IMG/VR virus record: IMGVR_UViG_3300033148_007826
Origin: an uncultured virus (IMG/VR IMGVR_UViG_3300033148_007826)
Taxonomy: Duplodnaviria; Heunggongvirae; Uroviricota; Caudoviricetes
Reading direction: 5' to 3' (one strand)
DNA: 20,000 nucleotides
Shown one piece after another: positions 107-12,639 of this stretch. Position 1 is the first letter of the stretch. Every line of letters begins with the position of its first letter. A program made the position numbers and the translations under genes. Under the pieces are notes generated by a model. It did no database searches. It was not told where the DNA came from and saw only the letters and a list, made by a program, of their open reading frames with translations.

Positions 107-159
107 ATGTGCTATCATTTTAGATAAAGTATATAAAGTCCCTGAACTTTCTGAAATCT

Positions 160-3249: not shown

Positions 3250-3338
3250 TGGTGCTGGAGGGAAGATTCGAACTTCCGACGTTGCCTATGTAGTGATTCC
3301 TAAGACCACCGCATTCGACCTGGCTCTGCTACTCCAGC
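3250..3338 (-). tRNA. tRNA-Leu(TAG) with encoded CCA
   Basis: Acceptor GCTGGAG/CTCCAGC-ACCA, anticodon arm GTGGT-CTTAGGA-ATCAC, long variable region. Confidence 0.92.
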
Positions 3339-3340
3339 TT

Positions 3341-3859
3341 TTAATGTGTGTCGTTATATTCCTGACACCAGTTGATGATGGTTTCCTCAGTCCATTTGAA
3401 ATGACGATTCTTCCGTATGTTTCGAGATTGAATCTTTCCGACAAGCTCTGCCCGCTTCTTCATATCAACCATGTCGTAACCCATATATTGATTTCGTCTT
3501 CCAATTGGCCCCATTGAAATGTATTCGAGCATAACCCCGATATGTGGTTTTTTTATTACTGAGTAGGGAGATATTGTAGTTAATAATTTCTTTAATGATG
3601 GTCTTGCATAAATGCTTATTTCTGCCATTTTGCATCCTGTTCCGTAAGTACGAAATCGGGTATTGTAATTGAGGCCCAGGTCATCAAATATATGTTTAAT
3701 GGTTTGGAACCATTTTCCTTCGGACATAGCGATGCTAAACGAGGGGGTGATGGCTATCCGATTCCCAAATTTTCTTTTTGATTTTCGTGTGATGACGTTG
3801 AAATAAATTGAGCCTTCGCCATCAATCAATCCCGCCATCCAAGCTATTGTGGTAGACAT
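3341..3859 (-). CDS. Free-standing single-motif LAGLIDADG homing endonuclease
   Basis: N-terminal AWMAGLIDGEGSI motif; basic 172-aa protein; lower GC than neighbours; own TATA motif near 3890-3905. Confidence 0.88.
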   Translation of the reverse strand: MSTTIAWMAGLIDGEGSIYFNVITRKSKRKFGNRIAITPSFSIAMSEGKWFQTIKHIFDDLGLNYNTRFRTYGTGCKMAEISIYARPSLKKLLTTISPYSVIKKPHIGVMLEYISMGPIGRRNQYMGYDMVDMKKRAELVGKIQSRNIRKNRHFKWTEETIINWCQEYNDTH

Positions 3860-6059: not shown

Positions 6060-6635
6060 CTAAGTTGGTGGGGAAAACTCCCCGATTACAGGACCGTAGT
6101 AGTCCCCTATTGTTTTCATACCGCCATCATCAGTGGATTGCGTGTCTCCTATAGCGTGTAGAGAGGTGAACAATGATACCCATTTGGCACTGTAATTCGT
6201 TTCATAATCCAGTGTGGCCCCATTCCAGCAAAAATTGGTCAGGTCATAACTTCCACCCGGAACAGCCGGGAAGCCTTTTATTGATTCGATTACTGTGCCA
6301 TCGTCAAAGGTCGTCATTATGACAATCCTCTCAACACTCCGATTCTCTATTCGCTCTTTTACTAATTGAGAATCGTTTACGAAGTATTGGAGCCTATATC
6401 TCCAGCCCCCTTCTAGTTCCATGCCCATTACATTCAGGTTCACTATCTCTGTGGAACAGTTGGCGTAGATGATTTTCCCCATTCCCTCATTTGTGGGGGT
6501 GATGATGAGTTCGGGCTGTTCTTCCGCCTCATTCGTCGTATGCTCATAGACGAATAGCCCGTATGTCGTTGCCATCCCCATGATGAATACACACATGAGA
6601 GCAATGCCCACCGTGATTCTTTCCTTGCCTTTCAT
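6060..6635 (-). CDS. Membrane-anchored or secreted hypothetical protein
   Basis: Likely start MKGKERIT at 6635 (RBS GAGGT); N-terminal TM; the longer listed ORF runs into tRNA-His. Confidence 0.8.
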   Translation of the reverse strand: MKGKERITVGIALMCVFIMGMATTYGLFVYEHTTNEAEEQPELIITPTNEGMGKIIYANCSTEIVNLNVMGMELEGGWRYRLQYFVNDSQLVKERIENRSVERIVIMTTFDDGTVIESIKGFPAVPGGSYDLTNFCWNGATLDYETNYSAKWVSLFTSLHAIGDTQSTDDGGMKTIGDYYGPVIGEFSPPT

Positions 6636-6692
6636 TTTATCAACCTCTTTCGTGTAAGATTGACTAAGGCCGGGGACTTTATATGGTTTTAG

Positions 6693-6764
6693 GGGAAAGA
6701 GCGGGAGTCGAACCCACACTTACAGGGCCACGGTCTGTGGTGCTACCATTACACTATCTTTCCC
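6693..6764 (-). tRNA. tRNA-His(GTG) with encoded G-1
   Basis: G(-1)-GGAAAGA/TCTTTCC-C73; anticodon loop CCGTGGC with atypical C33; T-loop TTCGACT. Confidence 0.88.
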
Positions 6765-6809
6765 ATAGTAATAACGTATTTATATTGATTCATCCATTAT
6801 GTAGGCTCA

Positions 6810-6974
6810 ATGGCATTTCCTGAACCCGTACCAGTCCTTACCGGAGAGCAAGCCGAGGAGTTCGCCCGAAGACTTCGTGATTTCAAGTTGACCGATGAGC
6901 AGAAGGCGTTTTACAGAGAGGCCATGCAGATTCATAGACGACATAAAGATGATGGAAAAAAATACATAAGATGA
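6810..6974 (+). CDS. Small protein, 54 aa (MAFPEPVPVLTGEQAEEFARRL...), possibly antitoxin-like
   Basis: Hand-translated; TATA box (TATTTATAT) about 25 nt upstream. Confidence 0.65.
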   Translation: MAFPEPVPVLTGEQAEEFARRLRDFKLTDEQKAFYREAMQIHRRHKDDGKKYIR

Positions 6975-6975
6975 T

Positions 6976-7207
6976 TCATTCCTCTACTACCGTTTCATTC
7001 ATTTCATCTCGCAGCCATTCGACGAATTCCTCGTCGGTTCGATTCTCGACGAACTTGGCGTAGATTGCTTTGGCGAGATTTTCTCTCGGCTTCGTGTAGC
7101 AGAGGTTTCCGAACGGGTATCCGCTCTTTCCTCCTGGTTGGCGACCTTCTCGTGCTATCTCATCGGTGAAGGCGTAGCCATTCCAGAACGTCCTTTGGAC
7201 TATTCAT
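6976..7207 (-). pseudogene. Small hypothetical gene interrupted by an apparent +1 frameshift
   Basis: Strong RBS GAGGTGA and ATG give only MNSPKDVLEWLRLHR*; the +1 frame continues DEIAREGRQPGGKSGYPFGNLCY...FVEWLRDEMNETVVEE*. Confidence 0.5.
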
Positions 7208-7239
7208 GGCTGTTCACCTCGTTTGTTTTAAAGTGATGA

Positions 7240-7517
7240 TGCCGGGAGCAGGATTTGAACCTGCGATGTTTACCCTACGGTACAGATTTCCCAGAAACAA
7301 GACCATTTGAGTTTGCTCCTCTTTTAAGTTCAAGCCCCAGAGAGCATGGGCCGCACTTTGGTCCGGCCCGGCTATAAAGTTGTCCCTCGGTCCTCTACTC
7401 GATTCATAGAGGGGGTTGTCTCCATAGTCCCCAGGAGTTTACTTGCTTCCGCCTGAGTGCGGCGGAGTCCATGCTCTACTCGGTCTGCTCCAATCGACCT
7501 GGCTCTGGCATCCCGGC
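7240..7517 (-). tRNA. tRNA-Leu(TAA) with two BHB introns (7330-7484 at 30/31; 7288-7322 at 37/38)
   Basis: Acceptor GCCGGGA/TCCCGGC-A; T-arm GCAGG-TTCAAAT-CCTGC; Leu-type variable arm ACCGTAGGGT; removing both introns gives GCAGA-CTTAAAA-TCTGT. Confidence 0.85.
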
Positions 7518-7519
7518 AT

Positions 7520-7830
7520 AAATTAAGAGGCGTGTGACCAACCTGAAGGGGTCCACCCTCATATCATAAGGTGCTAACTTCAGGTCAGGCCAAAAGAGTC
7601 CTCTGTCGCACAGAAGCCGAAACAACGAAACACGGTGACGATATGTTGAAAACAACCCCGGCACAACAAGGAGCCCTTCTAGCAGGCAATTATTGGTGTT
7701 TCCACCAATGAATTCCTAGTATGGATAAAGGAACTCCCGGCGAGATAACGCTTACCCTCGACAGGGCGTTTCGTAAACGCCGAGGGCATTCGTCTATCCC
7801 ATTGTGCCAGTTTCATGTTCCTCATCTCCG
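7520..7830 (-). ncRNA. Unrecognised ~300-nt highly structured RNA
   Basis: At least 8 nested helices with G-U pairs on the minus strand, a GAAA tetraloop, and an upstream TATA promoter at 7851-7870. Confidence 0.65.
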
Positions 7831-7957
7831 AGGTATTCTGTGGTATGTCGTGGGGGTTTAAAAAGATTTCGACAGTCATGCAAACTGTCTTCATCTCGCC
7901 TTAAACGTCACTCTCTTTCTTCTTCCAGTATCATGGTCTTTAACGTAAAATGTGACG

Positions 7958-8419
7958 CTACGGTGTTTCTTCATCATTTATGACCGCCACCCTGAACTTC
8001 CCCCCACTGGCTATCCATTCTTGTAGGATTTCCTTTGAGAGTTCGTCGTAGTAGGTTTCCCGCTCTACGACTATCTCTTGAATCCCCGCCTCTATGAGTT
8101 CCAGCATACAGTCTTTGCATGGGACACCCATAGCGGAGTAAAGAATAGCCCCATGGGTGCATCCGCTACCTATTGCTGTGACCAATAAGACTTTTCGTTC
8201 TGCGTGAAGGGCTCGACAATCCGCATGACCCGCCCAGTCTTTCTTCGTTCTACGACAGCTCTCACAGGGTTTTAGCGGAAGCGGTGGGCCGTTCCAGCCT
8301 GGGATAAGTCTCCCACTTCGTAGTTCGAGAACGCACCCCAAATGTTTCTTTTTACAAGTTGAATTCTTGGAAGCGTTCCTGGCTATTGCCATCCGATTAG
8401 CATCAGTTCTCCCCGTCAT
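7958..8419 (-). CDS. dCMP deaminase family (ComEB-like) zinc deaminase
   Basis: STC..KHLGCV, GWNGPP, LHAE, PCKDC and AGIQEIV motifs. Confidence 0.9.
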   Translation of the reverse strand: MTGRTDANRMAIARNASKNSTCKKKHLGCVLELRSGRLIPGWNGPPLPLKPCESCRRTKKDWAGHADCRALHAERKVLLVTAIGSGCTHGAILYSAMGVPCKDCMLELIEAGIQEIVVERETYYDELSKEILQEWIASGGKFRVAVINDEETP

Positions 8420-10937: not shown

Positions 10938-11261
10938 TTATAGGTTAATAAGGGCCCCGAAGTATATTATCGCCAATCCTATCCCCATGATGATTCCACC
11001 GCCGATGATTCCTTTGATTCCCAATGGTGGTAGAATCGGTATGAAGATGATTAGCCCGAGGAGGAAGAGGCCGAGGCCGAATAGAAGAATCCAGAATTCG
11101 GCGTACTCATAACTCACACGGGTTTCCTCAGCTTCACGCACTGAGGAATTGTATATGAGCATACTCATAGATATGACGAGTATGACTAATAAGACCGCCA
11201 TTACTGCGATAACCCTGTTGCTCGTCCTGCAATCGCATTTATCGCCCTTTTTTTCAGGCAT
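10938..11261 (-). CDS. Small membrane protein (about 3 TM)
   Basis: Hydrophobic segments; RBS GGAG. Confidence 0.75.
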   Translation of the reverse strand: MPEKKGDKCDCRTSNRVIAVMAVLLVILVISMSMLIYNSSVREAEETRVSYEYAEFWILLFGLGLFLLGLIIFIPILPPLGIKGIIGGGIIMGIGLAIIYFGALINL

Positions 11262-11797: not shown

Positions 11798-12157
11798 ATG
11801 GAAATGATAGGTCTATTAATCCTGGGGCATTTGGTCGGCGACTATCTGTTTCAGAACAAGCGCATGGCTGAGGCAAAAGGTTTTTTCACCCTAAGTGGCT
11901 GGTTCTGGTGCGGCCTGCATTCGGCAATCTATTCCATGACCATCTGTTTCTTCTTGTGGAATTTCAATCCCTGGCTGTTCGTGCTGATATTCCTAACACA
12001 CTTTCCGATAGACAAGTTTTCAGTAGCCAGTTGGCTTTTCAAGTTGAAATATCGTGAGAGGGTCGATTTCGATAAGCCAGGACATCTCTTCATCTATGCG
12101 GCCAACGATAATGCGCTTCATCTACTGTTGATGTGGGCTGTCGTGGTGGTGATGTAA
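11798..12157 (+). CDS. DUF3307-family membrane protein
   Basis: GHLVGDYLFQ..MA..K, LHSAIY, THFPID, DNALHL; likely start at 11798 (RBS GGTGA; class I promoter 11752-11771). Confidence 0.8.
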   Translation: MEMIGLLILGHLVGDYLFQNKRMAEAKGFFTLSGWFWCGLHSAIYSMTICFFLWNFNPWLFVLIFLTHFPIDKFSVASWLFKLKYRERVDFDKPGHLFIYAANDNALHLLLMWAVVVVM

Positions 12158-12639
12158 TGAAGACAGCAATCTTTCCAGGGACTTTCGACCCATTTACAAT
12201 CGGACATTTGCATTTGCTTGAGTTCGGTCTTCAGATGTTCGATGAGGTCGTCATCGCTATCTTGGCCAATCCGGGTAAGAAGTCCCGATTCTACATCAAG
12301 GACCGTGTTTCTATGATTTCCGCCGTCATTGAGAAGAACAATTGGCAGAACGTAGAAATCCATGTAAGCAACAAATTGCTCGTGGAAGTGGCCGAGCAAT
12401 ATGGAGCTGATGCCATACTCCGTGGCGTTCGTGGTGCTGAAGACTGCATGATAGAGATTGAAATGGCCCGTGTGAATGCATTACTTAAGCCCGGTTTGAA
12501 GACCGTCCTAATCCCTGCTGATATATCTATCATCAATGTCAGCTCATCCCTTGTACGACTTCTACTTAAGGCAAAGAGATATGCTGATGCTACAGCTCTT
12601 GTCCCCACTCCCGTGCGTCCCTACCTCAAAATGGGGTGA
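12157..12639 (+). CDS. coaD: Phosphopantetheine adenylyltransferase, bacterial type
   Basis: MKTAIFPGTFDPFTIGH, NPGKK, RGVR...D...E..MA.VN, VSSSLVR; TAATG coupling to the DUF3307 gene. Confidence 0.9.
   Translation: MKTAIFPGTFDPFTIGHLHLLEFGLQMFDEVVIAILANPGKKSRFYIKDRVSMISAVIEKNNWQNVEIHVSNKLLVEVAEQYGADAILRGVRGAEDCMIEIEMARVNALLKPGLKTVLIPADISIINVSSSLVRLLLKAKRYADATALVPTPVRPYLKMG

Follow-up and report, generated by a model that had tools for sequence, protein, structure and literature searches.

The window analysed here, by which we mean the whole 20,000-nucleotide stretch of DNA of an uncultured virus, carries seven plain tRNA genes and an eighth, at 7517-7240, which is found by ARAGORN when introns are allowed. 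The open reading frames (ORFs) of the window include those encoding an RNA ligase, a LAGLIDADG endonuclease, a dCMP-deaminase-like protein, a helicase, a DUF1643 protein and a CoaD-type adenylyltransferase, and a family assignment is absent for most of the window ORFs. The proteins encoded in the window are themselves recorded in databases, on two contigs, with lengths of up to 135 kb. On the minus strand, between the deaminase gene and the intron-bearing tRNA, lies the stretch of about 316 nt that is the subject of this work and that is called the leader hereafter. The elements of its predicted transcription unit are the following:

7852-7863, minus strand: promoter box TTTTAAACCCCC, TATA-like, one of the 11 matches to WTAWAAASYCCC with at most one mismatch
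7832-7834, minus strand: predicted transcription start, placed from the box end at 7852 and the 17-19 nt spacing of the other boxes
7518-7833, minus strand: predicted leader RNA, about 316 nt, from the predicted start to the base preceding G1 of the tRNA
7240-7517, minus strand: tRNA with a long variable arm, A73 and a 190-nt intron in the anticodon loop (ARAGORN with introns)
6976-7206, minus strand: small downstream ORF, in the same predicted transcript as the leader and the tRNA
6956-6962, minus strand: T7 run, the likely terminator, first run of at least five T after the predicted start

The 12-base box WTAWAAASYCCC, with at most one mismatch allowed, is present in 11 copies in the window against 1.05 expected, and none of 200 shuffles reaches 11. 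ORFs stand downstream of all 10 copies other than the one at the leader: the sequence 17-19 nt downstream begins with ATG in five cases and with GGTG in four, and the remaining one has a longer 5' leader with a GAGGT site. In genes of the GGTG class the ATG follows the box by 24-28 nt. Archaeal promoters have a TATA box centred near -26, which results in a fixed distance between the box and the ATG when the ATG is leaderless. The initial annotation had placed a promoter upstream of the RNA, at 7851-7870, and the recurrent box is indeed found there, at 7852-7863 on the minus strand, where it overlaps a T5 run (7860-7864) located 3' of the deaminase gene.

Runs of at least four T on the minus strand are limited, between 7833 and 6900, to two T4 runs (7652-7649 and 7595-7592) and the T7 run at 6962-6956. 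Since there is no run of five or more T from 7833 to 6962, the leader, the tRNA at 7517-7240 and the small ORF form one predicted transcript. The ATG frame of this ORF (6976-7206) ends after 15 codons, and the +1 frame, with a codon score of 0.457, looks coding. The RNA had been described as ending just before the tRNA, in agreement with the tRNA 5' end at 7517. Because the leader is contiguous with the tRNA, it is reasonable to infer that an RNase P cut at the tRNA 5' end would free an RNA of about 316 nt.

The thermodynamic stability of the region is strand-specific. The predicted folding energy of 7520-7830 is -120.4 kcal/mol on the minus strand, whereas 100 dinucleotide shuffles average -93.3 +/- 5.9 (z -4.61) and not one equals it; on the plus strand the z value is -1.89 and three of 100 shuffles are as good. 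The comparison with dinucleotide shuffles had been named as a check of the initial annotation, which had also deduced the minus-strand orientation from irregular pairs that are G-U on this strand and A-C on the other, and both points are borne out. Of the 105 pairs in the leader's minimum-energy fold, 19 are G-U, a share that fits the asymmetry between the strands. Moreover, in a scan with 120-nt windows the minus strand exceeds the plus strand in stability all through 7581-7940.

This asymmetry, with its dependence on G-U pairs, argues against a DNA-level element, namely an origin, a packaging site or an attachment site beside the tRNA. According to PMC4090602, archaeal viruses commonly integrate at tRNA genes, which speaks in favour of such an element; however, no integrase family is present among the window ORFs scanned, and 6700-8200 contains only three short two-copy repeat families (11-22 nt), none of them beyond chance and none repeating the leader. 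We consider this explanation extremely unlikely.

The background of the virus itself was estimated in two ways. In 132 windows of 300 nt on the minus strand, the mean z is -0.33 (sd 1.40) and five windows fall below -3, four of which are adjacent and cover 7201-8100. The fifth, 10951-11250, lies inside a clearly coding ORF, 10938-11261, plausibly for a three-helix membrane protein, and reaches z -4.26 in the same scan; stability alone is therefore no proof of a non-coding RNA. In 86 non-overlapping sense windows of 147 nt, taken from 23 genes, the mean z is -0.22 (sd 1.13) and the minimum is -3.10. The stretch 7831-8110, which takes in the 3'-terminal part of the deaminase gene and the gap ahead of the promoter, has a z of -3.68 and contains a hairpin followed by the T5 run. 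The structured parts of the leader, as predicted from single-sequence thermodynamics, are these:

7658-7810, minus strand: domain 1, predicted multi-helix core with most of the signal (z -5.68; z -4 is reached by 0 of the 86 gene windows)
7741-7800, minus strand: predicted long arm of domain 1, with GGGAUA/UAUCUC, UGCCCUCG/CGAGGGUA and GCGUUU-ACG-AAACGC (pair probabilities 0.93, 0.90 and 0.86)
7692-7709, minus strand: predicted hairpin AUUGGUG-GAAA-CACCAAU with a GNRA-type tetraloop (pair probability 0.98)
7536-7592, minus strand: predicted domain-2 hairpin, in which an internal loop separates an 8-bp stem from a 6-bp stem that carries the loop AUGAUAUG (pair probabilities 0.99 and 0.85)

Domain 1, evaluated on 7661-7807, is more stable than all of 200 shuffles, and its z values are well outside the range of the genes of the virus. 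Within it the arm 7741-7800 has a z of -5.50 against shuffles. The hairpin 7536-7592 is also more stable than all of 200 shuffles (z -3.45). Domain 2 as a whole (7520-7657) is not significant, with z -1.74 and 10 of 200 shuffles as good. Of the two-domain structure that had been proposed, domain 1 and this hairpin carry the significant signal. The leader contains a real, strand-specific and unusually stable RNA fold, composed of about 150 nt and one hairpin.

Ten of the 11 helices listed in the initial annotation were located by script, three of them confirmed by coordinate (7810-7802/7666-7658, 7788-7781/7760-7753 and 7585-7578/7548-7541), and the remaining one, the GUUG/CAAC hairpin, is present in the fold of domain 2 alone; its pair-probability value is invalid because the script matched a wrong copy of GUUG. 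In the ensemble predicted for the whole leader, the mean pair probability is at least 0.68 for seven of the 11 listed helices. The helix closing domain 1 (7810-7802/7666-7658) has a pair probability of 0.10 in the whole leader and is present when the domain is folded in isolation; UUCUG/CAGAG and UGGCC/GGUCA, both of domain 2, do not exceed 0.12 in the whole leader. A long imperfect helix, pairing about 7687-7660 with 7618-7589, is predicted as a competitor.

The hairpin at 7536-7592 was also compared by eye with guide RNAs. An H/ACA guide RNA has a K-turn or K-loop and a guide pocket, with its ACA box at a distance of 14-16 nt from the latter. Here the loop could form a K-loop (UAU-GA-UAU-GA) and ACA follows the stem, at about 18 nt from the internal loop, whose strands are short. 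Inspection of the leader by eye, against the C/D consensus, revealed no box C/D pair.

The tRNA that follows the leader is itself unusual. Its D-loop is identical to that of the tRNA-Leu(UAG) of the window, and the fold of the pre-tRNA has a z of -4.19. ARAGORN reads it as Ser(GGA) with an intron at 7480-7291. Group I introns have a U at the end of the 5' exon that is paired to a G, and a G at the end of the intron; a group I reading was rejected, as no splice choice examined by eye yields a 7-nt anticodon loop together with the U-G pair and the terminal G. A search of 7230-7530 against Rfam at E<=10 returned nothing relevant to the intron, and neither this piece nor 6900-8200 gave an Intron_gpI match at that threshold. 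In a bulge-helix-bulge motif a 4-bp helix is flanked on either side by a 3-nt bulge at a splice site, and the intron pairs with the first two bases of the anticodon (PMC4090602). Read in this way at the canonical position 37/38, the intron is 7477-7288 and the tRNA is Leu(GAG); the 4-bp helix then contains one G-G mismatch, and the anticodon loop would be CCGAGUA, in which C33 and U37 are unusual. The intron has 190 nt, whereas 11-129 nt are given for archaeal tRNA introns in PMC4090602. Two direct relations between the leader and its neighbour were considered and rejected: a duplex of the leader with the pre-tRNA is matched in quality by 79 of 512 shuffles, and the sequence likeness of the leader to the intron is inside the shuffle range.

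Bulge-helix-bulge motifs are about equally common in shuffled sequence: 6900-8000 contains nine perfect ones against 8.3 in shuffles, and 205 against 172 when one mismatch is allowed. Therefore only the 37/38 position supports the bulge-helix-bulge reading of the tRNA intron. The same lack of specificity weakens the idea that all or part of the leader RNA is excised at such motifs by the tRNA-splicing endonuclease of the host and then circularised. Perfect motifs occur in the leader, for example with cuts after 7653 and 7594, and the intron of the adjoining tRNA suggests that the virus relies on this enzyme; but within the predicted transcript neither domain 1 nor the whole leader is enclosed by a perfect motif, and the motif 7841/7622 begins upstream of the predicted start. 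Excision of this kind is very unlikely.

The host of the virus is probably archaeal, on account of the promoter grammar, of the tRNA-Tyr and of the anticodon-loop intron without group I signature. The tRNA-Tyr of the window has 73 nt, a short variable arm and a C1-G72 pair, and short-arm tRNA-Tyr with C1-G72 is of the archaeal/eukaryal type. Two observations point in the other direction: the CoaD match is a bacterial equivalog, and the sole organism name among the relatives of the deaminase is a Pedobacter MAG, at 56% identity. The attribution to an archaeal virus made in the initial annotation is thus supported by the first three features and opposed by these two.

The leader also contains a short reading frame, which overlaps the structured core and offers a different reading of the whole unit:

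7679-7825, minus strand: 48-codon ORF, whose ATG follows the predicted start by 8-10 nt, overlapping domain 1

According to this reading the leader would be the mRNA of a small basic protein, of 48 residues from the ATG at 7825 or of 71 residues from an ATG at 7894 by read-through from the deaminase gene, and its structure would be incidental or would tune translation or stability. The position of the frame is in its favour. The ATG at 7825 is 26 nt after the box end, within the 24-28 nt range of the GGTG class, and, as noted above, every other copy of the box precedes an ORF; in only 105 of 5000 leader shuffles (2.1%) does an ATG within the first 12 nt open an ORF of at least 48 codons. Other tRNAs of the window also stand directly 3' of ORFs, as in the case of 3341-3859, followed by tRNA-Leu, and of 6060-6635, followed by tRNA-Met. 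When the position of the ATG is left free, however, an ATG-initiated ORF of at least 48 codons is found somewhere in the leader in 522 of 2000 shuffles. Moreover no GGTGA site is present, and a GGAG abuts the ATG with zero spacer.

The composition of the frame argues against a protein. Its codon score, -0.007 bits per codon, lies at the median of 1588 random ORFs, 49% of which have the same score or a higher one, and a score as low as this is found in only 1.8% of 166 chunks of 48 codons taken from real genes. The box-driven small ORF at 160-291 on the plus strand scores -0.002, random-like as well, and is likewise uncalled; either tiny genes score random-like in this virus, which would make a low score normal for a frame of this size and would favour the mRNA reading, or ORF 160-291 is no gene. 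The 48- and 71-residue products are absent from a collection of 15 billion proteins and from the gene calls of the source, although ORFs of 54 and 59 residues are called there, and the 54-, 59-, 107- and 116-residue products of the same contig are present in that collection. A phmmer search with the 71-residue form against 1.84 billion representatives retrieved no true homologue. Its two matches, at E about 1e-5, are giant Ig-repeat proteins with summed repeats, rejected as spurious (pairwise BLASTP E 0.028, no self match). AF2, run without an alignment, gives the 48-codon product a pLDDT of 54 and no secondary structure, against a pLDDT of 76 and a long helix for the control, the 59-residue ORF of the same virus. 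Finally, the ORF-sized stretch 7679-7825 has a z of -5.56, beyond all 86 gene windows. Taken together, we regard the small-protein mRNA as a possibility on the unlikely side, and translation of the leader ORF in itself as somewhat improbable; such translation would not exclude a functional fold.

The leader matches no known RNA family. No Rfam family matched it when the window was searched at the gathering score, and at E<=10 nothing was found for it in 6900-8200, nor was there any match for 7500-7850 taken alone. The initial annotation had seen no RNase P, SRP or group I core and had indicated a cmscan search against Rfam as the way to check the novelty of the RNA; the outcome of the search agrees with it on both counts.

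It had also suggested that relatives be sought in IMG/VR and archaeal metagenomes. DNA homologous to the leader was found in none of the searches described here, which covered IMG/VR, phage records, metagenome loci and genomes. In a blastn search, 6764-7960 had no match among 50,697 phage records. In IMG/VR, an 18-base string from the hairpin gave nine loci, all with seed-only matches; the 3' exon of the tRNA gave four loci, again seed-only, three of them in tRNA clusters with a long-arm tRNA-Tyr; and a 16-base promoter string gave 16 loci on 16 different contigs, none alike. A covariance model of domain 1 retrieved only domain 1 itself in the window. The leader was matched in none of 401 genomes from the phylum of a Nitrososphaera MAG; in that scan the match in 11 genomes is confined to the final ~50 bases of the tRNA, and the five best of these sites, when inspected, are tRNA-Cys genes. 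A scan of the species genomes with a D-arm pattern gave 115 sites, mostly tRNA-Ser(GCU) of Acidimicrobiia and chance sites, and was not informative.

The proteins of the virus are equally isolated. In IMG/VR the deaminase gave 10 loci with short weak segments, and its best non-self protein is 61% identical; 24 metagenome loci with deaminase relatives showed no match to the RNA, no tRNAs and no other gene in common. The RNA ligase gave two IMG/VR loci at 27-32% identity and the helicase none. The ORF at 6060-6650, between tRNA-His and tRNA-Met, retrieved only itself among 5.8 billion proteins, a protein search with the ORF downstream of the intron-bearing tRNA found nothing, and tblastn of two large ORFs against phages gave at most 28% identity. 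Judged from these sequence searches the virus is an orphan, and therefore neither covariation nor conservation of the ORF can support one reading of the leader or another.

The orphan state of the virus, with no relative of the region in any search, speaks in favour of a leader without a function of its own, which would be the remnant of a decayed gene or of a mobile insertion, or a cis-acting spacer degraded after the RNase P cut, with stability as a by-product of local hairpins. The structure does continue into the 3' end of the deaminase gene and its terminator hairpin, and the central part of the leader is subject to competition between alternative folds. The odd tRNA, with C33 and U37 or an ambiguous anticodon, and the frameshifted ORF downstream suggest that the locus may be in decay. 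A decayed sequence, on the other hand, would not be expected to surpass its shuffles in folding by 4-5 sd, and on one strand only, and the unit has retained a promoter box that matches its family. We therefore hold a functionless leader to be rather improbable.

The explanation that we favour, tentatively and with a probability of about 0.45, is that this stretch forms the long, highly structured 5' portion of a viral pre-tRNA transcript and in all likelihood persists as a free non-coding RNA. In this scheme an archaeal-type promoter (box 7863-7852) would start transcription near 7833 and, as no terminator-like signal precedes the T7 run at 6962-6956, the leader, the tRNA and the small ORF would be made as one RNA. 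The host RNase P, by cutting at the 5' end of the tRNA, would then release the leader of about 316 nt, so that the tRNA would act as a built-in signal for processing of the leader 3' end. In the released RNA the 5' half (domain 1, about 150 nt) would be a compact multi-helix structure and a stable hairpin would stand near the 3' end; this fold would protect the RNA, which may act as such on some target. The start site in this scheme is predicted from the spacing of the boxes, and the release, the stability of the product and any function are our own inferences from the arrangement of the locus.

Several known RNAs resemble the leader in part. The analogy with GOLLD and ROOL drawn in the initial annotation holds for the position, directly 5' of a tRNA in a tRNA-rich viral contig, and fails for size, for complexity and for the covariance models, which give no match at E<=10; in fact, with these RNAs of bacteria and prophages the leader shares only the location near tRNA genes in viral DNA. 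The average size of ROOL is 581 nt (PMC5737381). At about 316 nt the leader has roughly half the size of GOLLD and ROOL, and only about 150 nt and one hairpin are clearly structured. GOLLD and ROOL contain many multistem junctions and pseudoknots and their hosts are bacterial, whereas the leader belongs to a virus whose host is apparently archaeal and has no relatives.

The tRNA cluster of phage T4 gives rise to two stable RNAs of unknown function, species 1 and 2 (rnaC and rnaD). These RNAs are co-transcribed with tRNAs and matured by the tRNA enzymes of the host, as is proposed for the leader, but they are shorter and come from a bacterial phage. In the MALAT1/mascRNA type, the 3' end of a non-coding RNA is made by RNase P at a downstream tRNA-like fold. 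The maturation proposed for the leader follows the same logic, with RNase P acting at the 5' end of a tRNA fold; MALAT1/mascRNA, however, is eukaryotic and nuclear, and the leader adjoins a real, if unusual, tRNA gene at which cleavage is predicted. In their logic the T4 RNAs and this eukaryotic type come nearest to the proposed scheme. A further precedent is a box C/D sRNA that is nested in the intron of archaeal tRNA-Trp and is released by tRNA processing (PMC4090602). Here the likeness is that of an archaeal pre-tRNA carrying a second RNA; the tRNA-Trp sRNA is intronic and has C/D boxes, whereas the leader lies 5' of its tRNA and shows no such pair. Among the titles and abstracts covered, nothing on point concerning structured RNAs of archaeal viruses near tRNAs was found.

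In a bolder form of the favoured explanation, archaeal viruses would possess a new class of structured RNAs, of which the leader is the first example seen. Such RNAs would be transcribed at the 5' side of a pre-tRNA, freed by the host RNase P and active in infection, where they might serve, for example, as decoys or scaffolds for host proteins of RNA processing or of defence; they would be the counterpart of GOLLD, ROOL and the stable RNAs of T4. This form we consider unlikely. The leader is a good orphan candidate and not an established RNA class.

The main value of the locus is as a well-delimited candidate, in a case that rests on one sequence from an orphan virus, and its small core of about 150 nt would be easy to probe. 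GOLLD and ROOL are large folded RNAs that lie by tRNA genes in bacterial phages, and their function is still unknown. If the favoured explanation is true, the arrangement would be shared between domains, since an archaeal virus would also make a stable RNA with the help of the host tRNA machinery.

The intron-bearing tRNA directly follows the leader, a folded RNA with a predicted length of about 316 nt, and lies on the minus strand among the following features:

7958-7960 (-), stop codon of the deaminase gene
7956-7903 (-), hairpin closed by CGUCAC/GUGACG, between the deaminase stop and the leader's promoter
7889-7871 (-), second hairpin, between the same stop and promoter
7240-7517 (-), tRNA with an anticodon-loop intron of 190 nt
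6976-7206 (-), ORF directly after the intron-bearing tRNA; GAGGTGA site, ATG at 7206

The length of this intron is above the range of 11-129 nt that is quoted for archaeal tRNA introns (PMC4090602). The pre-tRNA has a z (folding energy relative to dinucleotide shuffles) of -4.19, and the intron itself is strongly folded. The anticodon of the tRNA is ambiguous, being Ser(GGA) according to ARAGORN and Leu(GAG), with A73, when a bulge-helix-bulge splice motif is placed at the canonical 37/38 site; position 33 is a C under both readings. The odd anticodon loop of tRNA-His(GUG) at 6692-6763 (-), drawn with C33 and with an anticodon stem whose closing pair is an A-C mismatch, resembles that of the intron-bearing tRNA.

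Upstream of the leader, a T5 run (7864-7860, -) lies downstream of both hairpins and overlaps the promoter box, a recurrent 12-base TATA-like element, and in region 7860-7957 (-) a terminator and the promoter after it seem to have these bases in common. Near the leader's 3' end, the stable domain-2 hairpin at 7536-7592 (-) carries the apical loop UAU-GA-UAU-GA, enclosed by a stem of 5-6 bp; this resembles an L7Ae-binding K-loop, and an ACA triplet is located 3' of the hairpin.

Elsewhere, the relevant features are:

131-142 (+), perfect promoter box between tRNA-Arg and tRNA-Tyr, on the opposite strand
3250-3338 (-), tRNA-Leu(UAG)
3341-3859 (-), free-standing LAGLIDADG endonuclease ORF
10938-11261 (-), 107-residue ORF with three hydrophobic segments
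12133-12639 (+), CoaD-type pantetheine-phosphate adenylyltransferase (NCBIfam bacterial equivalog, 135 bits against a cut-off of 103)

The 107-residue ORF occupies the sole other 300-nt window below z -3 (z -4.26; -3.60 for a 341-nt fold), so coding RNA of this virus can be highly structured. Transcription from the plus-strand box would continue into the tRNA-Tyr/Phe/Lys genes in antisense orientation; an ATG 17 nt after the box opens a 44-codon ORF (160-294, +) that has random-like codon usage and is absent from the called genes. The CoaD-type gene, whose neighbour encodes a DUF3307 membrane protein, is an odd auxiliary gene in an apparently archaeal virus.

In the ORF at 6976-7206, the ATG frame stops after 15 codons and the +1 frame, whose codon usage is gene-like (0.457), stays open for 74 codons, both encoding a similar V/L-EWLR peptide; a frameshift, recoding or an error in sequencing may account for the break, and a homologue search for this ORF found none. 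Only 2 nt separate the end of the LAGLIDADG ORF from tRNA-Leu(UAG), and tRNA-Met directly follows an ORF at 6060-6635; in this virus, co-transcription of tRNAs with ORFs appears to be the norm.
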